Sequence record: SRR31156797_1377
Strand: one strand, 5' to 3'
DNA length: 20,000 bases
This document shows positions 2-19,067 of this stretch, piece by piece (positions within the stretch are counted from its first letter, which is position 1; each line of letters starts with the position of its first letter). The translations under genes and the position numbers were made by a program. Under the pieces are notes generated by a model. It made no database searches and had not been told where the DNA came from. It saw only the letters and a program-made list of their open reading frames with translations.

Positions 2-2272
2 GATACGCAAGAGAATACTGTAAAAAGGTTTGTTCATGATCCGGGAAATGAAAATAGTATTAGTGGAGATGGTGTTTATACAATTTTTGAGGAGTCGGAC
101 AGTACTTTGTTAGTAGGTACTACATTAGGATTAAATCGTTATAATAAGCGAACAGAGATATTTAGTTTACTGAAGACCAAACCAAGTTTACACAACTATA
201 GCATTTATAGTATAATTCCTGATGATAAAGGTAATTATTGGATGGCGTCGGATAATGGTTTAATTTGTTTAAACAAGAATACGCTGGAGTGTACCTTTTA
301 TAACGAAAGTGATGGATTACCAGCTAATGAGTTTAACACTACGGCTTCCTGTAAAAGTATAAATGGCGAAATACATATAGGTTCGCCTAAAGGCCTGTTG
401 AGTTTTAATCCGGATTTATTTAAGAAAAACCCATATTATGCTCAACCTGCCATCACTAACTTACAAGTATATAATAGACATATTGCGCCTGGAGATAGTT
501 TAAACGGAAGAGTGCTCTTAAAAGATCAAATTTGGGCAACACCTAAAATAATGTTAAAACATTACGAAAATGATTTTTCGTTACAGTTTTCAGCCATGCA
601 CTTTGCTGTGCCTGAAAATAATCAATACTGGTATATGCTAGAAGGGCACAGAAATCAATGGATTGAAAGTGAGACGACAGATCGACGTTGGGCCTCATTT
701 ACCGGTTTGCCTCCTGGAAATTATACATTCAGGTTAAAAGCTTCAAATAATGATGGAGTTATGTGTAAACCAGATGATGAGGTTTCTTTGCAAATTGTAA
801 TTTTACCACCGTTTTGGCAGAGGCTGGATTTTAAGATTATGATGCTGTTTTTAATACTTGTTTCAATTGTTGCTTTGTTCAGGTTGCGGGTTCGTAAAAT
901 TAAGGCAGCTAATATCAAGCTCGAAAAGAAAGTCGGAGAAAGAACAAAAGAACTGCAAGCAACCAATCATTCGCTAAGCGAGCATAAGGAAGAACTACTT
1001 GCTCAAAGAGAAACATTGGTTAATATTAATAAAAACCTTAAAAAGTCTCAAAACAAAGTTATCAGTCAGAATAAAGAGCTCGATTTACATAGAAATAAGC
1101 TTGAGTTATTGGTTGAAGAACGTACTGCAGAGTTAATTAAGGCTTTGGAAAAAGCAAATGAGTCGGATCGCCTGAAGAGTTCATTTTTGGCTAATATGTC
1201 TCATGAGATAAGAACACCTATGAATGCTATTATTGGTTTTTCATCGCTGTTGCTAGATAGGGATTTGAATGATGATACCAGAAATAAATATTTGGAAACG
1301 ATTATTAAAAACAGTAATTCATTATTGGTTTTAATTAACGATATACTCGATATTTCTCAAATTCATTCTGGTCAGTTAAATTTTAAAATTAAGCCTGTTA
1401 ATCTGGCTACTATTTTACAAGATAGCTATGATGTTTTTAAGTTAAATCATCAAGTGCATAACGTTAAGCTGATTTTAAATATTGAACAACTCAAAAATAA
1501 CGACCTTTGTTTAATGTCGGATGAGGTGCGTTTTAAGCAGGTGCTTACTAATTTGATATCTAATGCTTTAAAGTTTACTAAAGCTGGGCAGGTAGAGTTT
1601 GGTATAAAAGAGATTTCGGATGAGATTATTATTTATGTAAAAGATACCGGCATTGGGATTCCTAAAAATACGGGCGACGATATTTTTGAACGTTTTGCAA
1701 AACTGGAAGATGATCCAAAACATGTGTTTCGTGGAGCTGGTTTAGGCTTGGCGATTAGTAAAAGCCTGGTAAACTTATGGGGAGGAGAACTTTGGTATGA
1801 ATCTGTTGAAAACAAGGGTACTACTTTCTTTTTTTCCCATCCTCTTTCTAATAAAAAGAAAACAGAGAGCGTAAAAACAGAACCATTAAATAGGGATTTT
1901 TCGGCTGTTAAATTAAAAGGAATACAGATTCTTGTTGCTGAGGATGAGGAGTCGAATTTTCAATTGTTACAGGCCTACCTAAGTAGTTGTGAAGTGAAAA
2001 TATTTAGGGCAAAAAATGGAAAAGAAGCTTGTGAAATGGTGGAATCTCAAAAGGTAGATATAGTATTAATGGATATTAAAATGCCTGTAATGAACGGGAT
2101 TGAAGCTGCTAAATACATAAAACTCCAAAATCCCGAATTACCAATAGTTGCACAAACGGCATTTGTTTACACGAATAAAGAAGAATTGATGGAGCAGGGG
2201 ATTTTTGACAGAGTTATAGCCAAACCAATTAAACGTACTGAACTATATAAGATATTGACCGATTTTGTATAA
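2..2272 (+). CDS. Hybrid sensor histidine kinase/response regulator (beta-propeller repeats, Y_Y_Y, TM, HisKA, HATPase_c, REC); 5' end lies outside the window
   Basis: The frame is open from base 2 ([23 protein letters not shown]...), so the listed start at 107 is internal. It has propeller repeats ([10 protein letters not shown]), Y_Y_Y ([20 protein letters not shown]) and a TM after PPFWQR. Kinase boxes: [36 protein letters not shown]1 DTGIGI, G2 GAGLGLAI. The C-terminal REC has [19 protein letters not shown] and KP. No AraC domain. Confidence 0.95.
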
Positions 2273-3540: not shown

Positions 3541-3631
3541 TAACATTTGTATTTCATTATGTAATAATATACTTTAGGAACTTAATAATTATAAATTAAT
3601 TAGAATCTACACTTAAATATTAACACCTGCT

Positions 3632-4816
3632 ATGAAAAAACTCTTATTAGCCTTATTAGTATTTACTACATTTACTGTATCTAAATCTTATGCTCAATTA
3701 AATTATCTTCCCGGATATATTGTTACATTAGATAAGGATACTATTCATGGAAGAGTTGCTTTTAAAGGAGATGAGGCTCTCTGTAAATATTGCCTGTTTA
3801 AATCAGAAGATAAAAAAGCAAAGAAATATTTTCCTGAAGAAATTAGAGCTTTTTGCATTAAAGGCACACGGTATTATGAATCTTTTAAGATTGACGAAAA
3901 ATCAAAATTTTTAGAACTACTTTTTAAAGGGGCATTAAATATTTATTATCACACCGATAAAAACAGCAAGAACTACTATGCTAAAAAGGAAAATGGAGAA
4001 CTGAAACCTCTGAAGTACTACGAACGATCTGTTTTGATAAATGAGAAAGGAACTGTTGAAGATGCAAAGGATTTTGATATTACAGAATACGATATGTCAT
4101 CTTGGAATTCAGGTAAGCAGAAGGTAGTGTTGCGCATTGAGGAATATAAGAAAACACTGGATACATTAATGAGTGATATGCCGGAGATGGCAGGTGAGAT
4201 TAACAGGTTGGGTAAGGTGGAACATAAGGAACTGATTGGTGTCTCACAGGTTTATCATCAGCTGAAATATAAAAATGAGGATTATATTGTTTATCATCAG
4301 AACAATAAAAAGGGTTTGCTTGAATTTTCAGTGGGATTGCTAAATATAGAATATAGCTATATAAAAATGAAAAATTCTTATACGATGTATGGGATGAAAG
4401 GATATACTCCTTTAAGGGGGAGTAACTTATTTTTTGGCTATGGGTTACAGTTTGCGGCTTTTGAAACTCCGCCAGGAATTGATATTATTGAATCACAGCA
4501 GGTACAAATCCCATCTATAAATTATGGGGTTTTTCGTATTCCTTTTTCTTTTGGATATATCTACCCGGGAAAAGTTTTATTGCCATATGCCTCAGTTGGA
4601 TTCAATGTGTATATTATAAGAGAGAAGTATTCTTTTGGAAAGGTAGTAACCCATGCAGAACCATTTTTACCATCTTATAGTTTGGGGTTAGCAGCAAACG
4701 TTTATAAAAATCTTCAGCTTACGGTTAATTTAGAAGGGGATTTCTGGGATTTGAATGTATTTTCGAGTTCAAAGTTTAGTCAAACGAAAAATATAGGCCT
4801 TCGTTATCGTTTTTAA
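3632..4816 (+). CDS. Hypothetical exported protein, probably with a C-terminal outer-membrane beta-barrel
   Basis: Signal peptide MKKLLLALLVF...SYA|Q. The N-terminal 'PGYIVTLDKDTIHG' domain is typical of Bacteroidota hypothetical proteins. The C-terminal half has alternating aromatic/Gly strands and ends GLRYRF, a BAM-type terminal Phe. Confidence 0.7.
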   Translation: MKKLLLALLVFTTFTVSKSYAQLNYLPGYIVTLDKDTIHGRVAFKGDEALCKYCLFKSEDKKAKKYFPEEIRAFCIKGTRYYESFKIDEKSKFLELLFKGALNIYYHTDKNSKNYYAKKENGELKPLKYYERSVLINEKGTVEDAKDFDITEYDMSSWNSGKQKVVLRIEEYKKTLDTLMSDMPEMAGEINRLGKVEHKELIGVSQVYHQLKYKNEDYIVYHQNNKKGLLEFSVGLLNIEYSYIKMKNSYTMYGMKGYTPLRGSNLFFGYGLQFAAFETPPGIDIIESQQVQIPSINYGVFRIPFSFGYIYPGKVLLPYASVGFNVYIIREKYSFGKVVTHAEPFLPSYSLGLAANVYKNLQLTVNLEGDFWDLNVFSSSKFSQTKNIGLRYRF

Positions 4817-4922: not shown

Positions 4923-5294
4923 ATGAGAGTATTTATTGAGTTTTGGAAAGCGAAAGAGACATGGTATCAAATGTCGAAGACCGAAAGAGCCAATTACGTG
5001 GATAGCACGGGAGCTTTAATGAAGAAGTTAATGACGGAAGGTTTGATTATTGTAGATGCCTGGGGAATAAACGAGGATGCTACATCGCATAGAGCTGATT
5101 ACGATTTTTTTGCGGTTACAAAAATGCCATCTGTTGAGTTATTGCTCCAATTTCAGGATATTTTAGAGGAGCATGGTTGGTACAAATATTTTGATCAGAT
5201 TAATATGTCAGGTAAAGATGTAGGAGTGGAGCAAACAACCAACCATATGATTAATCTGGAAAAAGAAGAACTGGTGATTGAAAAGAATATTTAG
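4923..5294 (+). CDS. DUF6616-like small protein (probable dimeric alpha/beta-barrel fold)
   Basis: Pattern FIEFW..K..W..MS..ER...AWG.NE......DYDFFAV...GWY.YF.Q.N.SG recalled as DUF6616; not verified by search. Confidence 0.6.
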   Translation: MRVFIEFWKAKETWYQMSKTERANYVDSTGALMKKLMTEGLIIVDAWGINEDATSHRADYDFFAVTKMPSVELLLQFQDILEEHGWYKYFDQINMSGKDVGVEQTTNHMINLEKEELVIEKNI

Positions 5295-5311
5295 AACTTA
5301 ATATAATTAAC

Positions 5312-5349
5312 GAGGCTATCCAATGAGATTTTTGGATAGCCTCTTTTTT
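5312..5349 (+). terminator. Intrinsic terminator between the convergent DUF6616-like gene and nth
   Basis: Perfect 12-bp stem GAGGCTATCCAA (5312-5323) / TTGGATAGCCTC (5332-5343), 8-nt loop, then T6. Confidence 0.85.
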
Positions 5350-5362
5350 AATTAATAAAGTT

Positions 5363-6022
5363 TTATTTCGACTTACTTTTCTGTTTTAGTGTATTTTGAT
5401 AATACTTGCAATATTCTTGTAATCCACATTTGGTGCACTTGGGATTGCGGGCAATACAAACATATCTTCCGTGTAAAATTAACCAATGGTGAGCTATGGG
5501 TAATAGTTCTTCGGCAAAATGTTTCACCAGCTGCTTTTCTGTTTCCAAGGGGGTTTTAGAATTGGTCGTCAATCCTATTCTTTCCGACACTCTAAAAACA
5601 TGGGTGTCTACTGCCATGGCTGGCTTTTCGTATACCACGCTGGCGATTACATTGGCTGTTTTTCTACCTACTCCCGGGAGTTTTTGTAGTTCCTTAATAT
5701 CATCTGGAACCACATTGTTGAAATCGTTTAACAACATTTTAGCCATGCCTATCAGGTGTTTGCTTTTATTGTTGGGATAGGTACATGAGCGAATATAATC
5801 GAATACCTCAGCAGGTTCAGCTTCCGATAATTCTTTGGCCGAAGGATAGCGTTTGAAAAGATCGGGAGTTATCATATTTACGCGTTTATCGGTGCATTGT
5901 GCAGAAAGAATGACAGCTACCAGCAATTCGTATGGGTTGGTATAGTCCAGTTCAGTTTCGGCAATAGGCATATTTTTCTGAAACCACGCTGTTATCTTTT
6001 CAAAACGTTCTTTTTTAGTCAT
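5363..6022 (-). CDS. nth: Endonuclease III (HhH-GPD DNA glycosylase/AP lyase, 4Fe-4S)
   Basis: LLVAVILSAQCTDKRVN, HhH LPGVGRKTANV, VDTHVFRV, ILHGRYVC and C-x6-C-x2-C-x5-C (CIARNPKCTKCGLQEYC). Confidence 0.97.
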   Translation of the reverse strand: MTKKERFEKITAWFQKNMPIAETELDYTNPYELLVAVILSAQCTDKRVNMITPDLFKRYPSAKELSEAEPAEVFDYIRSCTYPNNKSKHLIGMAKMLLNDFNNVVPDDIKELQKLPGVGRKTANVIASVVYEKPAMAVDTHVFRVSERIGLTTNSKTPLETEKQLVKHFAEELLPIAHHWLILHGRYVCIARNPKCTKCGLQEYCKYYQNTLKQKSKSK

Positions 6023-6072: not shown

Positions 6073-8382
6073 CTATAGGCTCGTCAACTTTAATCCAAAG
6101 AAAACTGTTCTTGGTCTCGAAGGGCCATAAATATAACCGCTGTCTCTGTTTTTACCTGTATCAAAATCATCCTGATACTGATTAAAAATATTCTGAATAC
6201 CTCCAAAAACTTCAATACCTACACCTTTTTCCAGCCATTTAAATTCGTAGGATGTTTTAATGTTGTTTTCTAAATACGATGTTGTTTCAATTAACTCATC
6301 TCTGCCATAATGCGGAACTAACATAGATCCTGTATATACCCCTGAAAGAGCCGCTTTAATATTGTACCTTGGCGTCCATGTAAAAGTATAGTAGCCATAA
6401 TCTTCAGGCGTACGCAAATAGTCTTTTAAACCCGGGTTGTTTTCTGACCAAACCACCTTTTTCTCAAACTGACTTTTTTGCAAGGTAATACCCGCTTCGA
6501 GTTGAACTCTTCGGTTATAATTACCCCTGATTTCGAAAGTACCTCCAGCTACAGTTGATCCATCTCCATTTCTTTTTTCTAGTATAGAATTACCATCTCC
6601 ATCAGTGCCAATTTCCTCTAAAATAAAAGCTTTATTTAATTGGGTGTAAAAACCTTCGAGGGTAAATCCCCAAACAAAATGTTCATTTGGTTTATCAAAG
6701 TTAATAGAAGTGCTCCAGCTCTGAGAGCGCTCTTCTTTTAAATCTTCGGCAAGTACAACGCGTTGAATTCCTCCTCCTGAAAAAGCAATATGCATATCGG
6801 CATCAAATGCCTGAGGTGCTCTGAATCCGGTAGACCAGCTCGATCTGAATTGCCAGTAATCCTGTTTGTAAAGCAAGGATATACGCGGGCTTAAAATCAT
6901 ATTGTTCACCATGTTGTGCTTGTCGGCTCTTAGTCCGGTTAATAAAGTCAGCTTTCTGTTAATGGACCAGTCACTTTGTAAAAATGCTCCGGTATTTTTA
7001 GTGGTTTGATCTAAGAAATATTCATAGGCTTTAATCTCATCATCCACCATATCGTAATTGTATTCTAAACCAAAACTCAGGTTGTTTTTACCCGAAATAA
7101 AATGATTTAGCATGTGGTTCAGTTGAATCCCACCGATATAGGTTTTGCTATCGGTAATCCCGTATGGAGGATTGGTAAAATGTTCATCGTATCCTTCTTC
7201 GTTATCATCGGGCATGATACCGGTATAATGATCCCTGTCGGTACTTTGACCAGCAATATAGGCTGCAAATGAAGACAGGTTATCATTAAATAATACGCTA
7301 TAATCCACTCCACCCATTAATACATTGTGGATGCGCTCTTCACTTTGATCAGCCAGATAAGCAGGTCCATCTTCTTTATTTCCTCCATATCTGTACTCAT
7401 ACATCGAAGAAATATTGAATTCTATTTTATGGTTGGGAGCAGGTAGCAAAAATGCGTTTAAGCCAAAAGAGTTGTTCTTTAATTGCGCCATCTCACTAAA
7501 TCCATCATTGTTGAGGTCGTAGGAATCTCGCTTACGATGCGATGCAAACAAGCTTAATCCGGCATTTCTTCTGTCGCTTACCGAACTGGCATTTCCATTG
7601 ATGATGAAGTCGCTGGATTCACCGTTTATAACAGCAGTATTGGTATTGATGGAATAAGCATCTCTATCCGGCAAACGGGTAATTACATTTACAGTTCCTC
7701 CAATGGCACCGGCACCGTATAATGCAGAAGCACCTCCACGAACCACTTCGATGCGTTCAATCATATTGGTAGGAATCTGCTCCAGGCCATATAATCCGGT
7801 TAAGGGGCTAAAAACAGGACGGCTGTTAATCAGGATTTGAGAATAACCACCTCCCAGTCCATTCATTCTTAATTGCGTATAATTACATGTCTGGCAATCG
7901 GTTTCAAGTCTTAACCCCGGCTGAAAAACCAAACCTTCGGAAAGGGTATTGGCCTGAATCATCTCCAGTTTTTTTCCTTCCATCACATTTACAATGACCG
8001 GGCTGTCGGTAATACGTTTAAATGTTTTGGTGCCGGTAATCACCACATCATCAATGGCCATGATATGCTCTTTTAGCTCAAAGTTGACCTCTATACTTTT
8101 ACCTGCAATAATTGTAATTTCTTTCTCAACAGGCATAAATCCAACACTATTCGCTACTAAAATATGTTTGCCCGGAGGTAAATCAATGAGCATATAGTGT
8201 CCGGATAAATCGGTGGCTGTGCCTAAATTGGTTCCTTTAATAAAAATGTTAACAAAAGGTAAGTGCTCTCCATTACTTTGAACGTCGCCAAAAACATTCG
8301 CATCAGAATGCTCCTGAGCATGGAGTGTACCTGTTGTAATAAGGATGCTAAAAATGACAAATGCGATATTTTTGATATTCAT
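6073..8382 (-). CDS. TonB-dependent outer-membrane receptor with N-terminal CarboxypepD_reg-like domain and plug CxxC motif
   Basis: Signal peptide ...LHA|Q; N-domain LPFVNIFIKGTNLGTATDLSGHY; TonB-box-like DDVVITGT; plug IERIEVVRGGASALYGAGAIGGTVNVIT; ETDCQTCNYTQLRMNGL; C-terminal GPSRPRTVFFGLKL. Confidence 0.95.
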   Translation of the reverse strand: MNIKNIAFVIFSILITTGTLHAQEHSDANVFGDVQSNGEHLPFVNIFIKGTNLGTATDLSGHYMLIDLPPGKHILVANSVGFMPVEKEITIIAGKSIEVNFELKEHIMAIDDVVITGTKTFKRITDSPVIVNVMEGKKLEMIQANTLSEGLVFQPGLRLETDCQTCNYTQLRMNGLGGGYSQILINSRPVFSPLTGLYGLEQIPTNMIERIEVVRGGASALYGAGAIGGTVNVITRLPDRDAYSINTNTAVINGESSDFIINGNASSVSDRRNAGLSLFASHRKRDSYDLNNDGFSEMAQLKNNSFGLNAFLLPAPNHKIEFNISSMYEYRYGGNKEDGPAYLADQSEERIHNVLMGGVDYSVLFNDNLSSFAAYIAGQSTDRDHYTGIMPDDNEEGYDEHFTNPPYGITDSKTYIGGIQLNHMLNHFISGKNNLSFGLEYNYDMVDDEIKAYEYFLDQTTKNTGAFLQSDWSINRKLTLLTGLRADKHNMVNNMILSPRISLLYKQDYWQFRSSWSTGFRAPQAFDADMHIAFSGGGIQRVVLAEDLKEERSQSWSTSINFDKPNEHFVWGFTLEGFYTQLNKAFILEEIGTDGDGNSILEKRNGDGSTVAGGTFEIRGNYNRRVQLEAGITLQKSQFEKKVVWSENNPGLKDYLRTPEDYGYYTFTWTPRYNIKAALSGVYTGSMLVPHYGRDELIETTSYLENNIKTSYEFKWLEKGVGIEVFGGIQNIFNQYQDDFDTGKNRDSGYIYGPSRPRTVFFGLKLTSL

Positions 8383-8403
8383 ATTTGATTCTTTTTCTTG
8401 TTT

Positions 8404-9222
8404 CTACAGAAATAGTAATAAACTAATAGCCATTACTACCATGCCGGCAATCAGTCCATAAATAGATAAATGGTGTTCACCATATTCTTGAGCAGCAGGT
8501 AAAAGTTCATCCAAACTGATGAAAACCATAATTCCGGCCACACCGGCAAAGATTACCCCAAACATAGTTGGTGATAAAAATGGCATTAAGATCAAGTAAC
8601 CTACAATGGCACCTATTGGTTCAGATAAACCGGAAAGAAAACTTAAACGGAAAGCTCTTCGTCTGCTTCCGGTGGCATAATAAATAGGTACAGAAACAGC
8701 GATTCCTTCCGGGATATTGTGAATGGCAATGGCTACTGCAATAGCAATACCCAGATTAGGATCGGTTAATGCGGCTGTAAAAGTTGCCAGTCCTTCCGGA
8801 AAGTTGTGGATTCCAATAGCTAAAGCTGTAAATAAGCCCATACGCATCAGGTGTTTTCCTTTTTTGTCAGCCTTACCTTCCATGCCTTCAATTTTTTCCA
8901 TTTCGTGTGGGTTTTCAGCTGAAGGAATAAATTTATCAATAATGGCAATAAGTGCCATTCCGGCAAAAAAGGATATAACTGTGTACCAGGTTCCGGCTAC
9001 TTCTCCATAGCCTTCAATTAAGTTATCTTTTGCCTTAAAAAATATTTCAACAAAAGATACATATATCATTACGCCTGCCGAAAAGCCTAAGGATAATGAA
9101 AGAAACTTTGTGTTCGTTCTTTTGGCAAAAAAGGCCATGGCACTTCCAATACCAGTGGCTAAACCGGCAAATAAGGTTAGCCCAAAAGCAGTTAAAACGT
9201 GCGAAAATTCAATGTTTTCCAT
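8404..9222 (-). CDS. zupT: ZIP-family divalent metal transporter ZupT
   Basis: [17 protein letters not shown], paired HNFPEG / HNIPEG metal-binding helices, [17 protein letters not shown]. Confidence 0.95.
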
Positions 9223-9253
9223 GATATGTTATTTTATCGTTTTCAGTAATTGT

Positions 9254-9916
9254 TTATTCTATGATTTTGCAAAATATTCTTTTTTGTATGGTTTGGGATA
9301 GGTGAATCTTATTTCCATTTAAATCCACTTCCATTGATTTATCTAGTTTAAATACCTTTAAGATTTTAAAACTGGCACCTGTTTCAATTTTATAATGTTC
9401 AAATAATTGTTGCACTTCTTCATCAGCATAAATTAACCTGACTATTGTTCCTTTATCTCCATTGGATAATTGATCCAGCTTTAATGCATTTTTATGTTTG
9501 ACGATAGAACCATCTGCTTGCGGAATGGGATCACCGTGTGGATCGAATTCCGGAAAATTCAAATATTCATCCAGTTTCTCTAATAAATTATCTGAAGTCT
9601 GATGCTCCAGTAATTCAGCTTCATTATGCACCTCTGTTAAATCTAAGTCTAATACTTGATGCAAGAACATTTCCCATATTCTGTGCCTGCGTATTACTTT
9701 AATAGCTACATTTTTTCCAGCGTCTGTTAATTGTAACTCTTTGTATGGCTCATAAATAAGCAAGTCTTTAGCTGCCAGTTTTTTTGCCATATCAGAAATC
9801 GCAGGACCCGAAATTCCTAAACGAGCAGACAAATTACTGGTAGAAGCTTTTTCACCTTCGTCGTATTTCAATGTGAATACGTTTTTTAGGAAGTTTTCAA
9901 CAGAAATCGAATTCAT
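9254..9916 (-). CDS. mntR: DtxR/MntR-family metal-dependent repressor with C-terminal FeoA domain
   Basis: wHTH N-terminus (ENFLK), RRHRIWEMFL, HNEAELLEH and FDPHGDPIP, followed by a FeoA/SH3-like domain. The symbol is tentative and based on Asn/Glu ligands instead of DtxR Met/Cys. Confidence 0.9.
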   Translation of the reverse strand: MNSISVENFLKNVFTLKYDEGEKASTSNLSARLGISGPAISDMAKKLAAKDLLIYEPYKELQLTDAGKNVAIKVIRRHRIWEMFLHQVLDLDLTEVHNEAELLEHQTSDNLLEKLDEYLNFPEFDPHGDPIPQADGSIVKHKNALKLDQLSNGDKGTIVRLIYADEEVQQLFEHYKIETGASFKILKVFKLDKSMEVDLNGNKIHLSQTIQKRIFCKIIE

Positions 9917-14841: not shown

Positions 14842-16836
14842 TTAATTGTAGAGAGAAGTGTTTAAGGGATGTGTAAAGAAAAACTCGGAACCTTTATTTA
14901 TTTCGCTTTTAAACTCTAAGGCACCACCAAGTAACTCAACCATATTTTTAGCAATAGAAAGTCCAAGTCCGGTGCCTCCTAACTCCGTAAAATGCTGGTT
15001 GCCTTCCTTAAAAAAGCGATCAAAAATAACCTTCGATTTATCCATGGATATCCCATGCCCGGTATCTTTTACCGAAAAGATTAAGTGCTTGTTCAGTTTG
15101 TCAACGGAGAAAATAACACTTCCTTCAGTGGTAAATTTGATGGCATTTTCAATCAGGTTGCTTAGTATTTGTTTTAGTCGGGTTGGGTCGGTGTAGATTA
15201 CCTGCTCCACATCCTGCGAAATGATATAGTTTACTTCAAGATTATTACCCTTAATTTGTTTTGATTTTAGCGAGAAGTTATGGTAAAGATTATCGAAGAG
15301 TAGATAAATATCAACGGGTTCTTTTTTTATGGATATTTCTCCTACCTCAATTTTTGAAATATCAATGATGTCTGAAATAATTCTGAGTAATTGTAGTGAA
15401 TTATCTTCGATTATCCTGGCGTATTTTTGTTTGTCAGCATAAGGTATGTCATTTTGCTTTAGTAAATCAGAAAAACCAATTATTCCATTCATTGGCGTTC
15501 TGATTTCGTGGGACATATTTGAGATAAATGCGGACTTTAAGCGATCGCTTTCTTCAGCCTTAACTTTTGCCAATTCTAATTCGTGGTTAATCTTCTCTAT
15601 TTGAGTATTTCTGTCTTTTAAGATTTTGTTTTTTTCTTTAAGTTTTCGCTGATTAGATTTTAGTTTTTTGGCAGTTTTAATTAAATCATTGTAAATGATT
15701 TCTTTTTCATCAATTTCTTTTTTTAATACTTGATTCGAGATTGTAATTTCTTTCGTCTTTTTTAAGATGGCAAATCTAAGTTTGTAGTTGAAAAATAAAA
15801 TGATCACTACAGATGTAATTAAAATGCAAAGGAAAATTCCCAGAATCTTAATGAGGTTATCCTGAAAGCTCACCTTATTCTGAATAAAATCCTGGTAAAG
15901 AAAATTGTCCAGATTGTAATCTTTTTCTAATAGACCAAGCTGAACGTAGGTGTTTGCCATGTGCTCCCACCTGGCTTTGTGCATATATCCAATTTCAACA
16001 AAATTAGGTAAGATATATTCTTCCATCTTTCGCGCTTCGTATAATAGCTGATCTTTATTGGCATCAGGATTGTATTTCTGAAGAATGATGTCTGCTGTTT
16101 CTTTTTTGTTGTGCATAGCATAAGCCCAGCCTTTGTAGGTAGCTCGTAAAAATGCTTCCACCTTATCCGGATTTTTATTCAAATAATCTTCTGATGTAAA
16201 CAAGCAATCTCCGTAAAAATCTATTCCATATGAAAGGGGAGAAATAATTACCGGATGATAACCTCTTTTTTTTATCTGATAAGGAAGGTCGATAGCGTAA
16301 CCGTCAATAATTTCGTACTCGCCGTTTACTAAACCCGATACACGATCATTGCGGTGAGAAACCTCTATCTTGTTTTCTATTTCCTCTTTATTAATCAATG
16401 CTTTTAATGTGTACAGTCCATGTTCCGAAAGTCTTACCTTTTTATCCGAGAAATCTTCAATTTTATTTATCCCATAATTGGCAAGCGTAATAAAGGCTTC
16501 TGGTGAATGTTGGAAAATAGCACCCAGCACCACAATGGGTTGGCCCTGATTTTTTGCAATCATTAAATGTGGAGAGTGAACTCCTATTTGTGCTGAATTA
16601 TTAACTACCCTTTCAATCGAGTTTGTGCCTTGAATTCCTTCGAATAATTTTACATGTAAACCTTCTTCCTGGTAATAGCCATTTTCTATGGCCGCATAAA
16701 AGCCTGCAAACTGAAATTGATGAGTCCAGTTCAATTGAACATTGATAGTGTCTGTGTTTGCTGCAAAGCCGGTTGGCAAAAAGAAGACACTTAAACCAAT
16801 GAAAACAAGTATTTTTTTTATTAGGCTAATTGGCAT
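14842..16836 (-). CDS. Sensor histidine kinase with periplasmic NMT1/THI5-like (ABC substrate-binding) domain; no receiver domain
   Basis: Signal peptide; [48 protein letters not shown] and [12 protein letters not shown] (NMT1/THI5-like); TM; coiled coil; H-box [13 protein letters not shown]-box [22 protein letters not shown]. Confidence 0.92.
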
Positions 16837-16854: not shown

Positions 16855-17268
16855 TTATAATGTTGCCCAAATTCGAGCCAAAGAATGACCGGGAGCATCA
16901 ATTTTTAAATCCAGAAAGTAACCGAATGGTGTTTGGTATACTTCATGTTCGCTGTTTTCTAATCGTTTTTGTGCTGCATTTAGTAAATCGAGTGTAAAAG
17001 CTGATGTTGCTTTTGATTCTGATAAATGTGCAAAGGAATGCAAAATGACACGTTTAGAATTATTTTTGCGGGCAGTCCATTTTAAATGATTTACCAGTTT
17101 TTTTTCGCGGCTAATTAAACTTTGCTCTTCATCAGTTTCTTCTACTTGAATAAAAGCCAAAATAGCATCCGTAATTACCTTGGCATCTCCTGCTGGCGGA
17201 GCATCAGGTAGATTTTGTATGCTGGCATTATATTCGAAGCTGTTAACGTAAAATACAAGTACTTTCAT
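16855..17268 (-). CDS. Free-standing archaeal-type threonyl-tRNA synthetase editing domain (tRNA-Thr_ED, DTD-like fold)
   Basis: AFIQVEETDE, ILHSFAHLS and PFGYF...GHSLA align colinearly with the archaeal ThrRS N-domain motifs AFISVE..DE, VYPFAHLS and APFGYYK...GHPLAE; 137 aa with no synthetase domain. Confidence 0.85.
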   Translation of the reverse strand: MKVLVFYVNSFEYNASIQNLPDAPPAGDAKVITDAILAFIQVEETDEEQSLISREKKLVNHLKWTARKNNSKRVILHSFAHLSESKATSAFTLDLLNAAQKRLENSEHEVYQTPFGYFLDLKIDAPGHSLARIWATL

Positions 17269-17752: not shown

Positions 17753-18229
17753 ATGACTCCGAAAAAGATATTATTTGTTTGTTTAGGGAATATTTGTCGC
17801 TCCCCAAGTGCAGAGGCGGTTATGAATGCTAAATTGGAAGAGAAGGGCTTAGACGATAAATACATTGTGGATTCAGCTGGTATTACCGGTTTTCATGCAG
17901 GAGAACCTGCAGATGCCAGAATGCAGCAGCATGCATTCCAAAGAGGATATCGCTTAACTAGTATTAGCCGGCCTGTAAATCCTGCTGAGGATTTTAAGGT
18001 ATTTGATTATATAATTGGGATGGATCATCAGAATATGAAGGATCTAACGGCATTGACTTCTGGTGAGAATGATTTGAGAAAGTTGAGTAAAATGACGGAC
18101 TATTGTTCTGCTTTTGATTATGATTCGGTTCCTGATCCCTACTATGGTGGAGCTGCAGGTTTTGAGTTGGTGCTCGATTTGTTGGAAGATGCTTGTGAAG
18201 GACTTATTAATAAAATCGAAAATGAATGA
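17753..18229 (+). CDS. Low-molecular-weight protein-tyrosine phosphatase (probable ribulosamine-5-phosphatase)
   Basis: P-loop FVCLGNICRS, VDSAG, DPYYGG. Confidence 0.95.
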   Translation: MTPKKILFVCLGNICRSPSAEAVMNAKLEEKGLDDKYIVDSAGITGFHAGEPADARMQQHAFQRGYRLTSISRPVNPAEDFKVFDYIIGMDHQNMKDLTALTSGENDLRKLSKMTDYCSAFDYDSVPDPYYGGAAGFELVLDLLEDACEGLINKIENE

Positions 18230-19067
18230 TGTTTTAGTTCAGGTTGCTGCGTTTTTAAACGATGAAATTATAACTTCTCAAGGAGCTGCAGGTGGCTGTA
18301 TTGCACAAAGTAGTATTATTCGAACTATATCAGGAAAAACTTACTTTCTGAAGCAGGGCTTTAATAATGGCATGTTTAAATGCGAGGCAAATGGACTATT
18401 GGAAATTGAAAAAGCCAACTGTATTCGTGTACCTAAAGTGATCATGGTTGAAGATGAGTTTTTATTATTGGAAACAGTTCAGGAAGGGAGAAAAAGTGCT
18501 CGGGTAATGTATGATTTTGGCCGTGATTTCGCGAAGATGCATATGTTCAAAGCAGAAGCATTTGGTTTTTTCGAGAACAACTTTATTGGTTCCAATCAAC
18601 AAATTAATACGCATGAGGAAAAGTGGGATGATTTTTATTTTACCAATAGATTACTGTATCAGTACAAATTAGCTGAAAAAAATGGCTATGTGACAAAGGA
18701 GTTAGAAAGTAAATTTTTAAAGCTGGAAAGCCAGATTTCTAATATTTTGGAAGGTAGTGAAGAGGAACCTTGTTTATTGCATGGCGATTTATGGGGAGGC
18801 AATTATATGGTAGATGAGAACGGAAATGGAGTCCTGATTGATCCAGCTGTTTATTATGGTCACAGAGAGGCTGATTTAGCCATGACTAAATTGTTTGGTG
18901 GTTTTTCTTCTGATTTCTATCAAGGGTACCAGAATTGTTATCCATTACAAGAAGGGTATAATTACAGAGAAGGTATATATCTTTTGTATCATGTACTTAA
19001 TCACCTAAACTTGTTTGGATCTGGTTATTATTCGCAAACAATGTCTTTAATTTCGCAATATGTATAA
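18222..19067 (+). CDS. Fructosamine kinase family protein (ribulosamine/erythrulosamine 3-kinase-like)
   Basis: GGCIA, YFLK, EANGL, FGFFENNFIGS, LLHGDLWGGN, IDPAVYYGHREADLAM, LYHVLNHLNLFG. Start moved to ATG 18222 (MNDVL..., 281 aa), overlapping the PTP stop by 8 nt. Confidence 0.93.
   Translation: MNDVLVQVAAFLNDEIITSQGAAGGCIAQSSIIRTISGKTYFLKQGFNNGMFKCEANGLLEIEKANCIRVPKVIMVEDEFLLLETVQEGRKSARVMYDFGRDFAKMHMFKAEAFGFFENNFIGSNQQINTHEEKWDDFYFTNRLLYQYKLAEKNGYVTKELESKFLKLESQISNILEGSEEEPCLLHGDLWGGNYMVDENGNGVLIDPAVYYGHREADLAMTKLFGGFSSDFYQGYQNCYPLQEGYNYREGIYLLYHVLNHLNLFGSGYYSQTMSLISQYV

Follow-up and report, generated by a model that had tools for sequence, protein, structure and literature searches.

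A Free-Standing Editing-Domain Gene

[quoted passage not shown] Its Pfam family is PF08915, named 'Archaea-specific editing domain of threonyl-tRNA synthetase'. The match covers residues 1-135 of the 137-position model, with an E value of 2.2e-33 and a score of 115.7 bits where the cut-off is 30.2. Nothing else in Pfam is matched at E<=1, and PF02580, the DTD family, is therefore without a match. No catalytic or anticodon-binding domain is present in the 137-aa protein, and other genes bound the ORF on both sides. The NCBIfam models for the archaeal ThrRS N-terminus and for the crenarchaeal Ser-tRNA(Thr) hydrolase (NF011500) are reached only below threshold, with 70.7 versus 484 bits and 39.9 versus 362 bits respectively. 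The protein contains no cysteines.

The original prediction for this locus, made from the sequence alone, described an archaeal-type ThrRS editing domain, present end to end and standing alone without a synthetase catalytic or anticodon-binding domain, and it named an HMM search with PF08915 as a check; the full-length match above the curated cut-off bears out this description, ORF boundaries included. The gene is also real and constrained, as indicated by dN/dS values of 0.07 for comparison with a 96%-identical orthologue (L009) and 0.11 for comparison with each of two others (L013 and L028), dS being saturated in four further pairs; it is thus under purifying selection.

Predicted Fold and Dimer

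From an alignment of 57 sequences, AlphaFold2 gives a model with a mean pLDDT of 97 and a pTM of 0.91. When the model is compared with the PDB using Foldseek, chains of the Pyrococcus abyssi NTD (PabNTD) rank first (TM 0.94-0.96, rmsd 1.0-1.2 Å, 27-28% identity), the NTDs of M. jannaschii (TM 0.93) and A. pernix rank next, and DTD chains trail with TM values of about 0.6-0.74 and 8-12% identity. Superposition on the P. abyssi domain and on DTD, which had been proposed together with the PF08915 search, places the model with the former (TM 0.95, rmsd 1.1 Å), the TM with DTD being about 0.65.

Prediction of a two-copy complex gives a score of 0.86, compared with 0.02 for the best of three controls, and passes a mark attained by 21 of the 30 proteins with structures solved as pairs and by none of the 23 solved as single chains. 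The runs have a contact agreement of at least 100% and a partner pLDDT of at least 93. The predicted interface is formed by residues 79, 81-84, 118-129, and 131-134, with R132 of one chain contacting H81 and F79 of its partner, and in the model this placement of R132 matches the cross-subunit geometry described for Glu134 in PabNTD.

A Remodeled Pocket on a Conserved Scaffold

Residues were equated with those of PabNTD through a phmmer search of PDB sequences, in which the NTDs of P. abyssi, A. pernix and M. jannaschii are found with E values from 2e-13 to 6e-6; the alignment of the query with the P. abyssi domain (E about 1e-13) is free of gaps throughout its C-terminal half. The PDB rows in this alignment are engineered mutants, and Lys121 as the wild-type residue is supported by the PDB title 'K121M mutant', by Ahmad et al. 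2015, and by all 20 of the archaeal-type representatives described below.

Three segments of the gene, all on the minus strand, hold the residues of interest. Codons for H77-S78-F79-A80-H81 (17026..17040) align with PabNTD Y79-P80-F81-A82-H83, the strand that provides the main-chain oxyanion hole together with His83; here F81, A82 and H83 are kept as F79, A80 and H81, and Y79 and P80 are replaced by H77 and S78. Codons for P114-F115-G116-Y117-F118-L119 (16912..16929) align with P116-F117-G118-Y119-Y120-K121, a segment that, by alignment and by the roles given in the literature, contains the adenine-stacking Phe, the RNA-protein interface and two changed pocket residues, with Y119 kept as Y117, Y120 replaced by F118 and K121 by L119. 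Finally, codons for P126-G127-H128-S129-L130-A131-R132 (16873..16893) align with K128-G129-H130-P131-L132-A133-E134, the cross-subunit loop and strand, and R132 takes the place of the PabNTD Glu by which the substrate's alpha-amino group is held. The changes of Tyr to Phe, Lys to Leu and Glu to Arg, which the original prediction had read from its own alignment, are thus all real (F118, L119 and R132). It overlooked further clade-defining residues, namely H77, S78, W64, K68 and R102.

The published work on these residues does not give them equal weight. According to the excerpted text of Ahmad et al. 2015 (PMC4491819), PabNTD with Y120A, E134A or both, like the equivalent mutants of A. pernix ThrRS-2, keeps its activity on Ser-tRNAThr and still rejects Thr-tRNAThr; H83A is dead in PabNTD and moderately active in the A. 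pernix NTD (ApNTD); and substitution of the Lys in three archaeal NTDs (K121M, K116M and K122M) leaves them severely compromised, with the catalytic water misplaced. The same excerpts place the oxyanion hole at the main-chain N of F81 and A82, the contact that fixes the Ser beta-OH at the main-chain N of residue 121, and the catalytic contribution of the tRNA at the 2'-OH of A76, and they state that in DTD, which is active, the natural residues at the K121 and His83 positions are Met and Leu respectively, which confirms the hydrophobic Met that had been attributed to DTD. Together with a 2024 review, seen likewise in excerpt, they report that NTD also deacylates Gly-tRNAGly and binds D-amino acids. 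Tyr120, Lys121 and Glu134 had all three been put forward as key pocket residues; this holds for Lys121, whose replacement by Met cripples editing, and fails for Tyr120 and Glu134, both of which are dispensable. Because the Y120A, E134A and double mutants retain activity and Ser/Thr discrimination, two of the three residues are weak evidence for a new specificity: the changes at Y120 and E134 say little taken alone, and it is the loss of K121 and the reversal of charge at E134 that are informative.

For DTD itself, the excerpts of Ahmad et al. 2013 (eLife; PMC3845328) describe an invariant Phe that stacks on A76 (F117 in PabNTD, F137 in PfDTD), the 2'-OH held by the N of Gly138 and the OH of Ser87 in PfDTD, an active PfDTD mutant in which Ser87 is changed to Pro, and PfDTD side chains within 6 Å of the scissile bond that comprise Ser87, Gln88, Phe89, Thr90, Met141 and the cross-subunit Pro150. 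The PabNTD pocket list that can be set beside this consists of Pro80, Phe81, Ala82, His83, Tyr120, Lys121 and Glu134 from the other subunit. Reading the two lists side by side suggests that the Ser at the P80 position and the Leu or Met at the K121 position of the stand-alone family are DTD states, and that the Arg or Lys at the E134 position would belong to neither PabNTD nor DTD.

A Signature That Separates Stand-Alone from Archaeal-Type Sequences

Ninety-five representatives of at least 120 aa were aligned with the query, and 115 or more query positions are covered by 89 of the resulting 96 sequences: 20 are archaeal-type, 66 are stand-alone and three are unclassifiable. His83 is common to both groups (20/20 archaeal-type, 65/66 stand-alone), and the other pocket columns part them. 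In PabNTD numbering, column 79 is Tyr in 18/20 archaeal-type versus His in 66/66 stand-alone sequences, and column 80 is Pro in 20/20 versus Ser in 62/66. Lys121 is present in all 20 archaeal-type sequences and in none of the 66 others (24 Leu, 15 Cys, 13 Asn, and others), and Glu134 is found in 18/20 versus a basic residue in 61/66 (34 Lys and 27 Arg). Three columns vary among the stand-alone proteins: Tyr120 (19/20 archaeal-type versus 27 Phe, 13 Ser, and others), His130 (19/20 versus 25 Glu, 11 Asp, 10 His, and others) and Pro131 (18/20 versus 27 Ser, 21 Pro, and others). The stand-alone group has conserved residues of its own, in query numbering W64 (62/66), K68 (61/66), R102 (54/66) and T113 (55/66).

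Within the 132 copies of the Bacteroidota type the pocket is nearly invariant. S78, F79, H81, G116, P126, G127 and R132 are each found in all 132, H77 and F118 in 131, F115 in 129, and L119 in 127 (with Met in four and Ile in one). The proposal that the substitutions define a clade is therefore upheld, and more strongly than it was stated: judged by these alignments, the stand-alone family as a whole is set off by its missing Lys121 and by a basic residue where E134 would be, its Bacteroidota branch by the Phe-Leu-Arg combination. In a FastTree phylogeny the archaeal-type sequences cluster together, and their nearest stand-alone neighbors are two sequences reading 'HSF...KGHPLSRV'; the tree is unrooted, and no direction of transfer between Archaea and Bacteria is drawn from it.

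Extent and Taxonomy of the Bacterial Family

The original prediction presented the gene as the oddity of one bacterium, which it is not, as there is a large family with thousands of relatives that NCBI already names. A word-index search with the query finds 2,922 proteins of 75-240 aa at E<=1e-3, and among the best 120 of these 118 are 137 aa long, the other two being 145 and 161 aa; genera named among these 120 are Saccharicrinis, Plebeiibacterium, Labilibacter, Carboxylicivirga, Sunxiuqinia, Draconibacterium and Maribellus. The NCBI label of the relatives, 'threonyl-tRNA synthetase editing domain-containing protein', is a domain name and assigns no function. Some members are labeled 'transcriptional regulator of aromatic amino acid metabolism' by JGI, and one JGI record reads 'predicted deacetylase'. 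A scan of species-representative genomes confirms 308 relatives, the best locus being in a Saccharicrinis metagenome-assembled genome (MAG) at 96% identity, and an exhaustive HMMER search of 1.84 billion cluster representatives yields 344 matches at E<=1e-3, mostly stand-alone proteins of about 135 aa with 27-60% identity, together with a few long ThrRS of the archaeal type. A search for longer relatives among 5.8 billion proteins, which by its own caveat is weak evidence, returns a single one, a 267-aa protein (P0121) on a 3.5-kb contig that is 52% identical over 95% of the query; it could be a fusion or a mis-called start.

A distant member of the family, of what is called here the Lys-type, used as query in a word-index search, adds 2,619 further proteins at E <= 0.001, with named relatives from MAGs of Candidatus Binatia, 'Deltaproteobacteria' and Anaerolineae, and the Atlas clusters of the family point to Binatota, Bacteroidota and Myxococcota. 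On the strength of these sequence matches, this is a large stand-alone bacterial family extending across Bacteroidota, Binatia, Myxococcota and Chloroflexota. Its distribution within Bacteroidota is patchy, with PF08915 carriers making up 4/401 evenly drawn Bacteroidota genomes and 52/301 genomes of the same order as the query.

Comparison with Known Editing Systems

Whole-genome statements made here refer to the nearest genome (G001; 5.7 Mb, 99% complete), which shares 50% of the sampled words of the window and whose copy of the gene is 96% identical to the query. Besides a single PF08915 gene, it has genes for a canonical DTD (200 bits) and for a ThrRS of the bacterial kind (729 bits), the latter encoded by a separate gene with TGS, tRNA_SAD, core and anticodon domains. 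The editing region of this ThrRS contains the sequences HSSAH and CRGPH, which we take to be the HxxxH and CxxxH editing motifs of the enzyme. DTD is found in 287/301 genomes of the order and in 48/52 of its PF08915 carriers; the four carriers without a DTD match are 88-94% complete, and a match is likewise lacking in 10/249 non-carriers. The absence of dtd that the original prediction suggested looking for is thus contradicted, in G001 and in the order as a whole, and because a DTD and a ThrRS with TGS and tRNA_SAD domains both co-occur with it, the PF08915 protein replaces neither. We accordingly rejected the ideas that it stands in for an absent dtd or for a missing ThrRS editing domain.

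The protein resembles PabNTD (PDB 1y2q, 2hl1, 3pd3) in Pfam family, fold and length, in its predicted homodimeric form with a cross-subunit pocket, and in keeping His83, the stacking Phe117, the PFG interface and the oxyanion-hole strand. It differs in being bacterial and unfused to a synthetase, and in having Leu for Lys121, Arg for Glu134, Phe for Tyr120 and His-Ser for Tyr79-Pro80, differences that are conserved in its family.

With DTD it shares a free-standing state, a bacterial setting, a DTD-like fold and a dimeric form (predicted for the query), as well as a Ser at the position that holds the A76 2'-OH, a hydrophobic residue at the position of PfDTD Met141 and PabNTD K121, and a spacing of 12 residues that separates the stacking Phe from the cross-subunit loop's Gly. 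It nevertheless co-exists with DTD in the same genomes, has a TM of only about 0.65 to it, and lacks the SQFTL and NxGPVT (cross-subunit Gly-cisPro) motifs, the query reading HSFAHL and APGHSL where the DTD of G001 reads SQFTL and NDGPVT. There is no match at the sequence level either. An hhalign comparison of the query with DTDs of related genomes is not significant (probability 0.8%), and that non-significant alignment put F115-G116 on the DTD F-G and L119 on the DTD Met; we therefore rejected sequence-level equivalence with DTD, and the comparison between them rests on the literature and on motif spacing.

ATD, the Animalia-specific tRNA deacylase, is, as described in the excerpted literature, another free-standing paralogue of the DTD-like fold with an altered pocket and a new specificity, and it serves as a precedent both for retargeting of the fold through a small change of the pocket and for back-up of ThrRS editing. 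The two are set apart by description rather than by sequence, ATD being DTD-derived (Gly-transPro) and found in animals and a few protists, whereas the query is bacterial and belongs to the NTD branch. There is no Gly-Pro motif at the aligned loop of the query, which reads G127-H128. The crenarchaeal free-standing ThrRS editing protein modeled by NF011500 also contains the NTD domain, acting in trans; unlike the query, which is an NTD alone, that protein spans about 387 model positions including an anticodon-binding part. Korencic 2004 is said to be the source for a crenarchaeal free-standing editing protein with an NTD acting in trans.

Genomic Context

In the window, 18 bp lie between the PF08915 gene and, downstream of it on the same strand, a sensor kinase gene (14842-16836, minus). 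As the kinase gene starts so soon after the PF08915 gene, the two are probably co-transcribed; no terminator-like site is present in the 18-bp gap. The kinase is of the sensor histidine type and has an NMT1/THI5-like solute-binding domain as its N-terminal part. On the other side, 484 bp separate the gene from a divergently transcribed low-molecular-weight (LMW) phosphatase gene. Rfam has no match anywhere in the window, which gives no indication of a riboswitch or T-box upstream; the count of sigma-70-like promoters does not exceed that in shuffled sequences, in a scan that does not cover Bacteroidota promoters.

Context was compared in three sets of loci. The first consists of 80 close-clade loci with 61-96% identity to the query, in which the neighbors seen in the window recur in a minority: the aminotransferase in 15, the aldolase in 15, and the kinase in 19 (by tblastn) or 12 (by clustering). 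These neighbors, kinase pairing included, are conserved in the closest genera only. Other recurrent neighbors (Pfam names throughout) are a divergent trypsin-like peptidase (41), a haem-binding-domain protein (26) and a DEAD-box helicase (25); immediately downstream, on the same strand, 19 loci have a TatD-family hydrolase and 18 a ThiF-family protein after it, and 18 have a formiminotransferase-cyclodeaminase (FTCD) upstream. In loci of the Prolixibacteraceae type the TatD and ThiF genes come after the PF08915 gene on its own strand and overlap or almost overlap (L032:4368-5072, 5065-5793; L128:4317-4988, 3629-4396); the ThiF-family protein is presumably TcdA-like.

The second set comprises 52 divergent Bacteroidota loci with 34-61% identity. 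Eleven of these show, within 2-3 genes, one or more of a UbiE-type methyltransferase (9), an ArsP_2 exporter (5) and a NifX-like protein (7), often with MFS transporters (9), SDRs, cupins, and glyoxalase-fold or Fe-S/flavin redox proteins, and a twelfth (L109) has the SDR-MFS part of the arrangement. With the PF08915 gene placed near position 5000, these are loci L089, L090, L091, L094, L101, L102, L109, L110, L112, L115, L120 and L129. The products encoded in the clusters are a UbiE/TehB-like SAM methyltransferase, an ArsP_2 exporter with ten transmembrane segments (10-TM), MFS transporters, a NifX-like protein (PF02579), proteins of cupin and glyoxalase fold, and flavin/Fe-S redox proteins, so that this anaerobe-type Bacteroidales cluster looks like a metalloid or redox-stress island; in the tree these loci form one sub-clade, and the query lies outside it. 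A gene for a Sir2-family deacylase directly adjoins the PF08915 gene in four of the 52 (L105, L116, L124 and L132), and DEAD helicase, MgsA and YidC genes are neighbors in three, six and two respectively. In two loci of one genus a canonical dtd and the PF08915 gene share a strand and are 3 bp apart (L118:4537-4989(-) with 4992-5411(-); L138:1371-1790(+) with 1793-2245(+)); a third genome of that genus (L104) has other neighbors. Single cases include PNPase, RuvX-Def beside Ffh, TrmO, a MiaB-like protein, S16/RimM, and TatD+ThiF.

The third set is made up of 77 metagenome loci of the Lys-type with a called ORF. Here the PF08915 gene follows trpE (24) and trpG (29) and precedes a gene for an SH3-domain protein (27) on the same strand. 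The order trpE - trpG - PF08915 - SH3-domain, on one strand, is seen in soil metagenomes at 29 loci within L145-L218 (for example L157:1899-3425, L164:1194-1925 and L171:4184-4915). The 29 trp-linked proteins have identities of 59-100% (median 74%) and form 23 clusters when grouped at 90% identity, so that the linkage is older than a single species; it may belong to one family-level lineage. It probably also explains the JGI name that refers to regulation of aromatic amino acid metabolism. No operon partner common to the whole family was found in the 80 close, 52 divergent and 77 Lys-type loci. Absence of a shared partner is typical of stand-alone housekeeping factors, and there are clade-specific recruitments besides.

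Interpretation and Alternatives

We favor the reading that the protein is a trans-acting 3'-aminoacyl-tRNA deacylase, homodimeric and free-standing, of the NTD branch of the DTD-like fold and with a specificity other than the archaeal one, and we would assign to this a probability of roughly 0.55. It is argued for by the intact scaffold for the 3'-adenosine and the ester, by the predicted dimer with its cross-subunit pocket, and by the lineage that pairs the gene with dtd, an adjacency that suggests a related job. Other neighbors are often genes of RNA, translation or amino-acid metabolism (PNPase, RuvX-Def-Ffh, TrmO, the MiaB-like protein, DEAD helicase, TatD+ThiF, trpE-trpG, FTCD and aminotransferases), and we count these in its favor as well. 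The terminal adenosine would be held by the conserved stacking Phe, the PFG backbone, the oxyanion-hole strand and His83, as on the scaffold of PabNTD and DTD, and catalysis would be RNA-assisted, by analogy with the solved relatives, with the A76 2'-OH activating the water. The amino-acid pocket is remodeled, consistently across the bacterial family, by the Ser at the P80 position, the Leu or Met at the K121 position, and a cross-subunit Arg or Lys in place of the amine-holding Glu, and a substrate that is neutral or anionic where L-Ser has its ammonium would fit the Arg. Candidate acyl groups would be moieties that are N-blocked, acidic or hydroxy-acyl, along with non-protein amino acids. 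The basic and aromatic surface residues W64, K68 and R102, to judge from their conservation, would suit tRNA binding without a synthetase body. Because the loss of Lys121 and the change of Glu to Arg or Lys are conserved over several phyla, the natural substrate is probably not recognized in the archaeal way, and is probably not Ser-tRNAThr.

Several points weigh against this reading. The neighbors in the window itself are a sensor kinase, an aldolase and an aminotransferase. Context is not conserved family-wide, and one Bacteroidales sub-clade has the gene in the methyltransferase/ArsP_2/MFS/NifX-like cluster, which has no link to translation. The dimer score may reflect the prediction model's memory, since NTD dimers are already solved, and is to be read as likeness and not as binding; the residue equivalences come from an ungapped sequence alignment and a low rmsd rather than from measured distances. 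The excerpted work on archaeal enzymes indicates that NTD specificity and catalysis rest on the main chain and the tRNA, so that, given the fully functional Y120A/E134A protein, changes of side chains need not alter specificity at all.

The last of these points is also what gives substance to an ordinary trans-editor of Ser-tRNAThr (or of Ala- or Gly-tRNA), which would back up the thiol/zinc N2 editing site of ThrRS when oxidants or thiol-reactive metalloids inactivate it. The survival of NTD specificity after removal of the Y120 and E134 side chains (PMC4491819, in excerpt) would allow such a role, a cysteine-free protein would suit it, one sub-clade lies in methyltransferase/ArsP_2/redox clusters, and oxidation of the editing-site Cys of E. 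coli ThrRS leads to Ser-tRNAThr mistranslation according to the excerpted text of PMC4041444. In animals, as far as the excerpts on ATD go, this paralogue of DTD fold is essential when oxidative stress inactivates ThrRS editing, and a similar arrangement in bacteria would be analogous. The ThrRS of G001, with its TGS and tRNA_SAD domains and what we take to be the two editing motifs, presumably has the site to be backed up. Yet none of the 66 stand-alone sequences has Lys121, the one side chain without which Ser-tRNAThr editing is crippled in three archaeal NTDs, and the amine-holding Glu has given way to the opposite charge in 61/66; moreover, Cys occupies the K121 position in 15/66 members, so that the family is not generally thiol-free, and the query's own sub-clade lies outside the stress clusters. 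We regard this explanation as a serious rival, albeit an unlikely one.

The same clusters bear on a role away from tRNA altogether, in which the fold would have been reused for an adenosine or ribose ester or another metabolite (such as Sir2-made O-acyl-ADP-ribose, or a metalloid or aromatic intermediate), or the protein would be a ligand-binding accessory. The contexts unlinked to translation (11/52 loci, or 12 with L109, with a methyltransferase, ArsP_2 or NifX-like gene, all in one sub-clade), the Sir2 gene adjoining in 4/52, and trpE-trpG directly upstream in 24-29 of the 77 Lys-type loci are consistent with this, and an Arg or Lys instead of the amine-binding Glu would go well with a phosphate or with an acyl group that lacks an amine. 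Nevertheless, every element that holds the 3'-terminal adenosine and the ester is conserved, the lack of a family-wide context is what a housekeeping stand-alone factor would show, and the dtd adjacency and RNA-related neighbors point to tRNA; in O-acyl-ADP-ribose, furthermore, the acylated ribose is not the adenosine ribose, and the known binding mode would not carry over. We consider a non-tRNA role rather improbable. A second D-aminoacyl- or Gly-tRNA deacylase, redundant with DTD, seems most improbable: the DTD-like states at the P80 (Ser) and K121 (Leu/Met) positions, the adjoining dtd in L118 and L138, and the D-amino acid binding and Gly-tRNAGly deacylation reported for NTD in the excerpts cited above would accord with it, but HSFAHL and APGHSL stand in place of the two motifs that the DTD of G001 retains, neither PF02580 (at E<=1) nor hhalign (probability 0.8%) connects the protein to DTD, and a canonical DTD in 48/52 carriers leaves no complementary distribution.

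Significance

The DTD-like fold serves as a textbook example of proofreading assisted by RNA. Its NTD branch passes for archaea-specific, as the Pfam name itself has it. The 2018 ATD paper and a 2024 review, as far as their excerpted text goes, give the members of the fold as DTD, archaeal NTD and ATD. No paper describing bacterial stand-alone NTD homologues was found in a literature search that left subscription journals and supplements outside its scope. A preprint on domain-combination trees is said to list PF08915. What is already known is thus the annotation of the family by domain name at NCBI, and what appears new, from comparison of its sequences, is a conserved bacterial free-standing NTD branch with a consistently changed pocket. 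We suggest, tentatively, that it may constitute a fourth functional class of the DTD-like fold, in which the NTD scaffold is combined with a DTD-like Ser, a Leu or Met, and a unique cross-subunit Arg or Lys, and which would clear mis-acylated tRNA beyond the reach of known factors (N-modified, acidic, hydroxy-acyl or non-protein); individual clades may have been drawn into the synthesis of aromatic amino acids (trpEG) or into stress islands of the metalloid and redox kind. If true, quality control of translation in bacteria would gain a new trans-editing factor, and the family would provide a natural experiment on pocket chemistry and specificity in a fold said not to use its side chains. The bacterial NTD branch is widespread, conserved and experimentally approachable.

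Other Genes of the Window

The divergently transcribed LMW gene at 17753-18229 (plus strand) encodes a phosphotyrosine phosphatase, with CLGNICRS and DPYY sequences that we take to be the motifs of that family. It was considered as an ArsC-type arsenate reductase that would tie the window to the metalloid clusters, which we rejected from its sequence, and it lies beside the PF08915 gene in only 4/80 close-clade loci. It is followed by a gene of the fructosamine-kinase family at 18114-19067 (plus strand), whose longest frame, with a TTG start, overlaps the end of the phosphatase gene; its true start is probably further downstream. Elsewhere in the window, positions 6073-9916 (minus strand) hold a metal-homeostasis block whose genes share one strand and encode a TonB-dependent receptor, a ZIP-family transporter and a DtxR/iron-dependent repressor.

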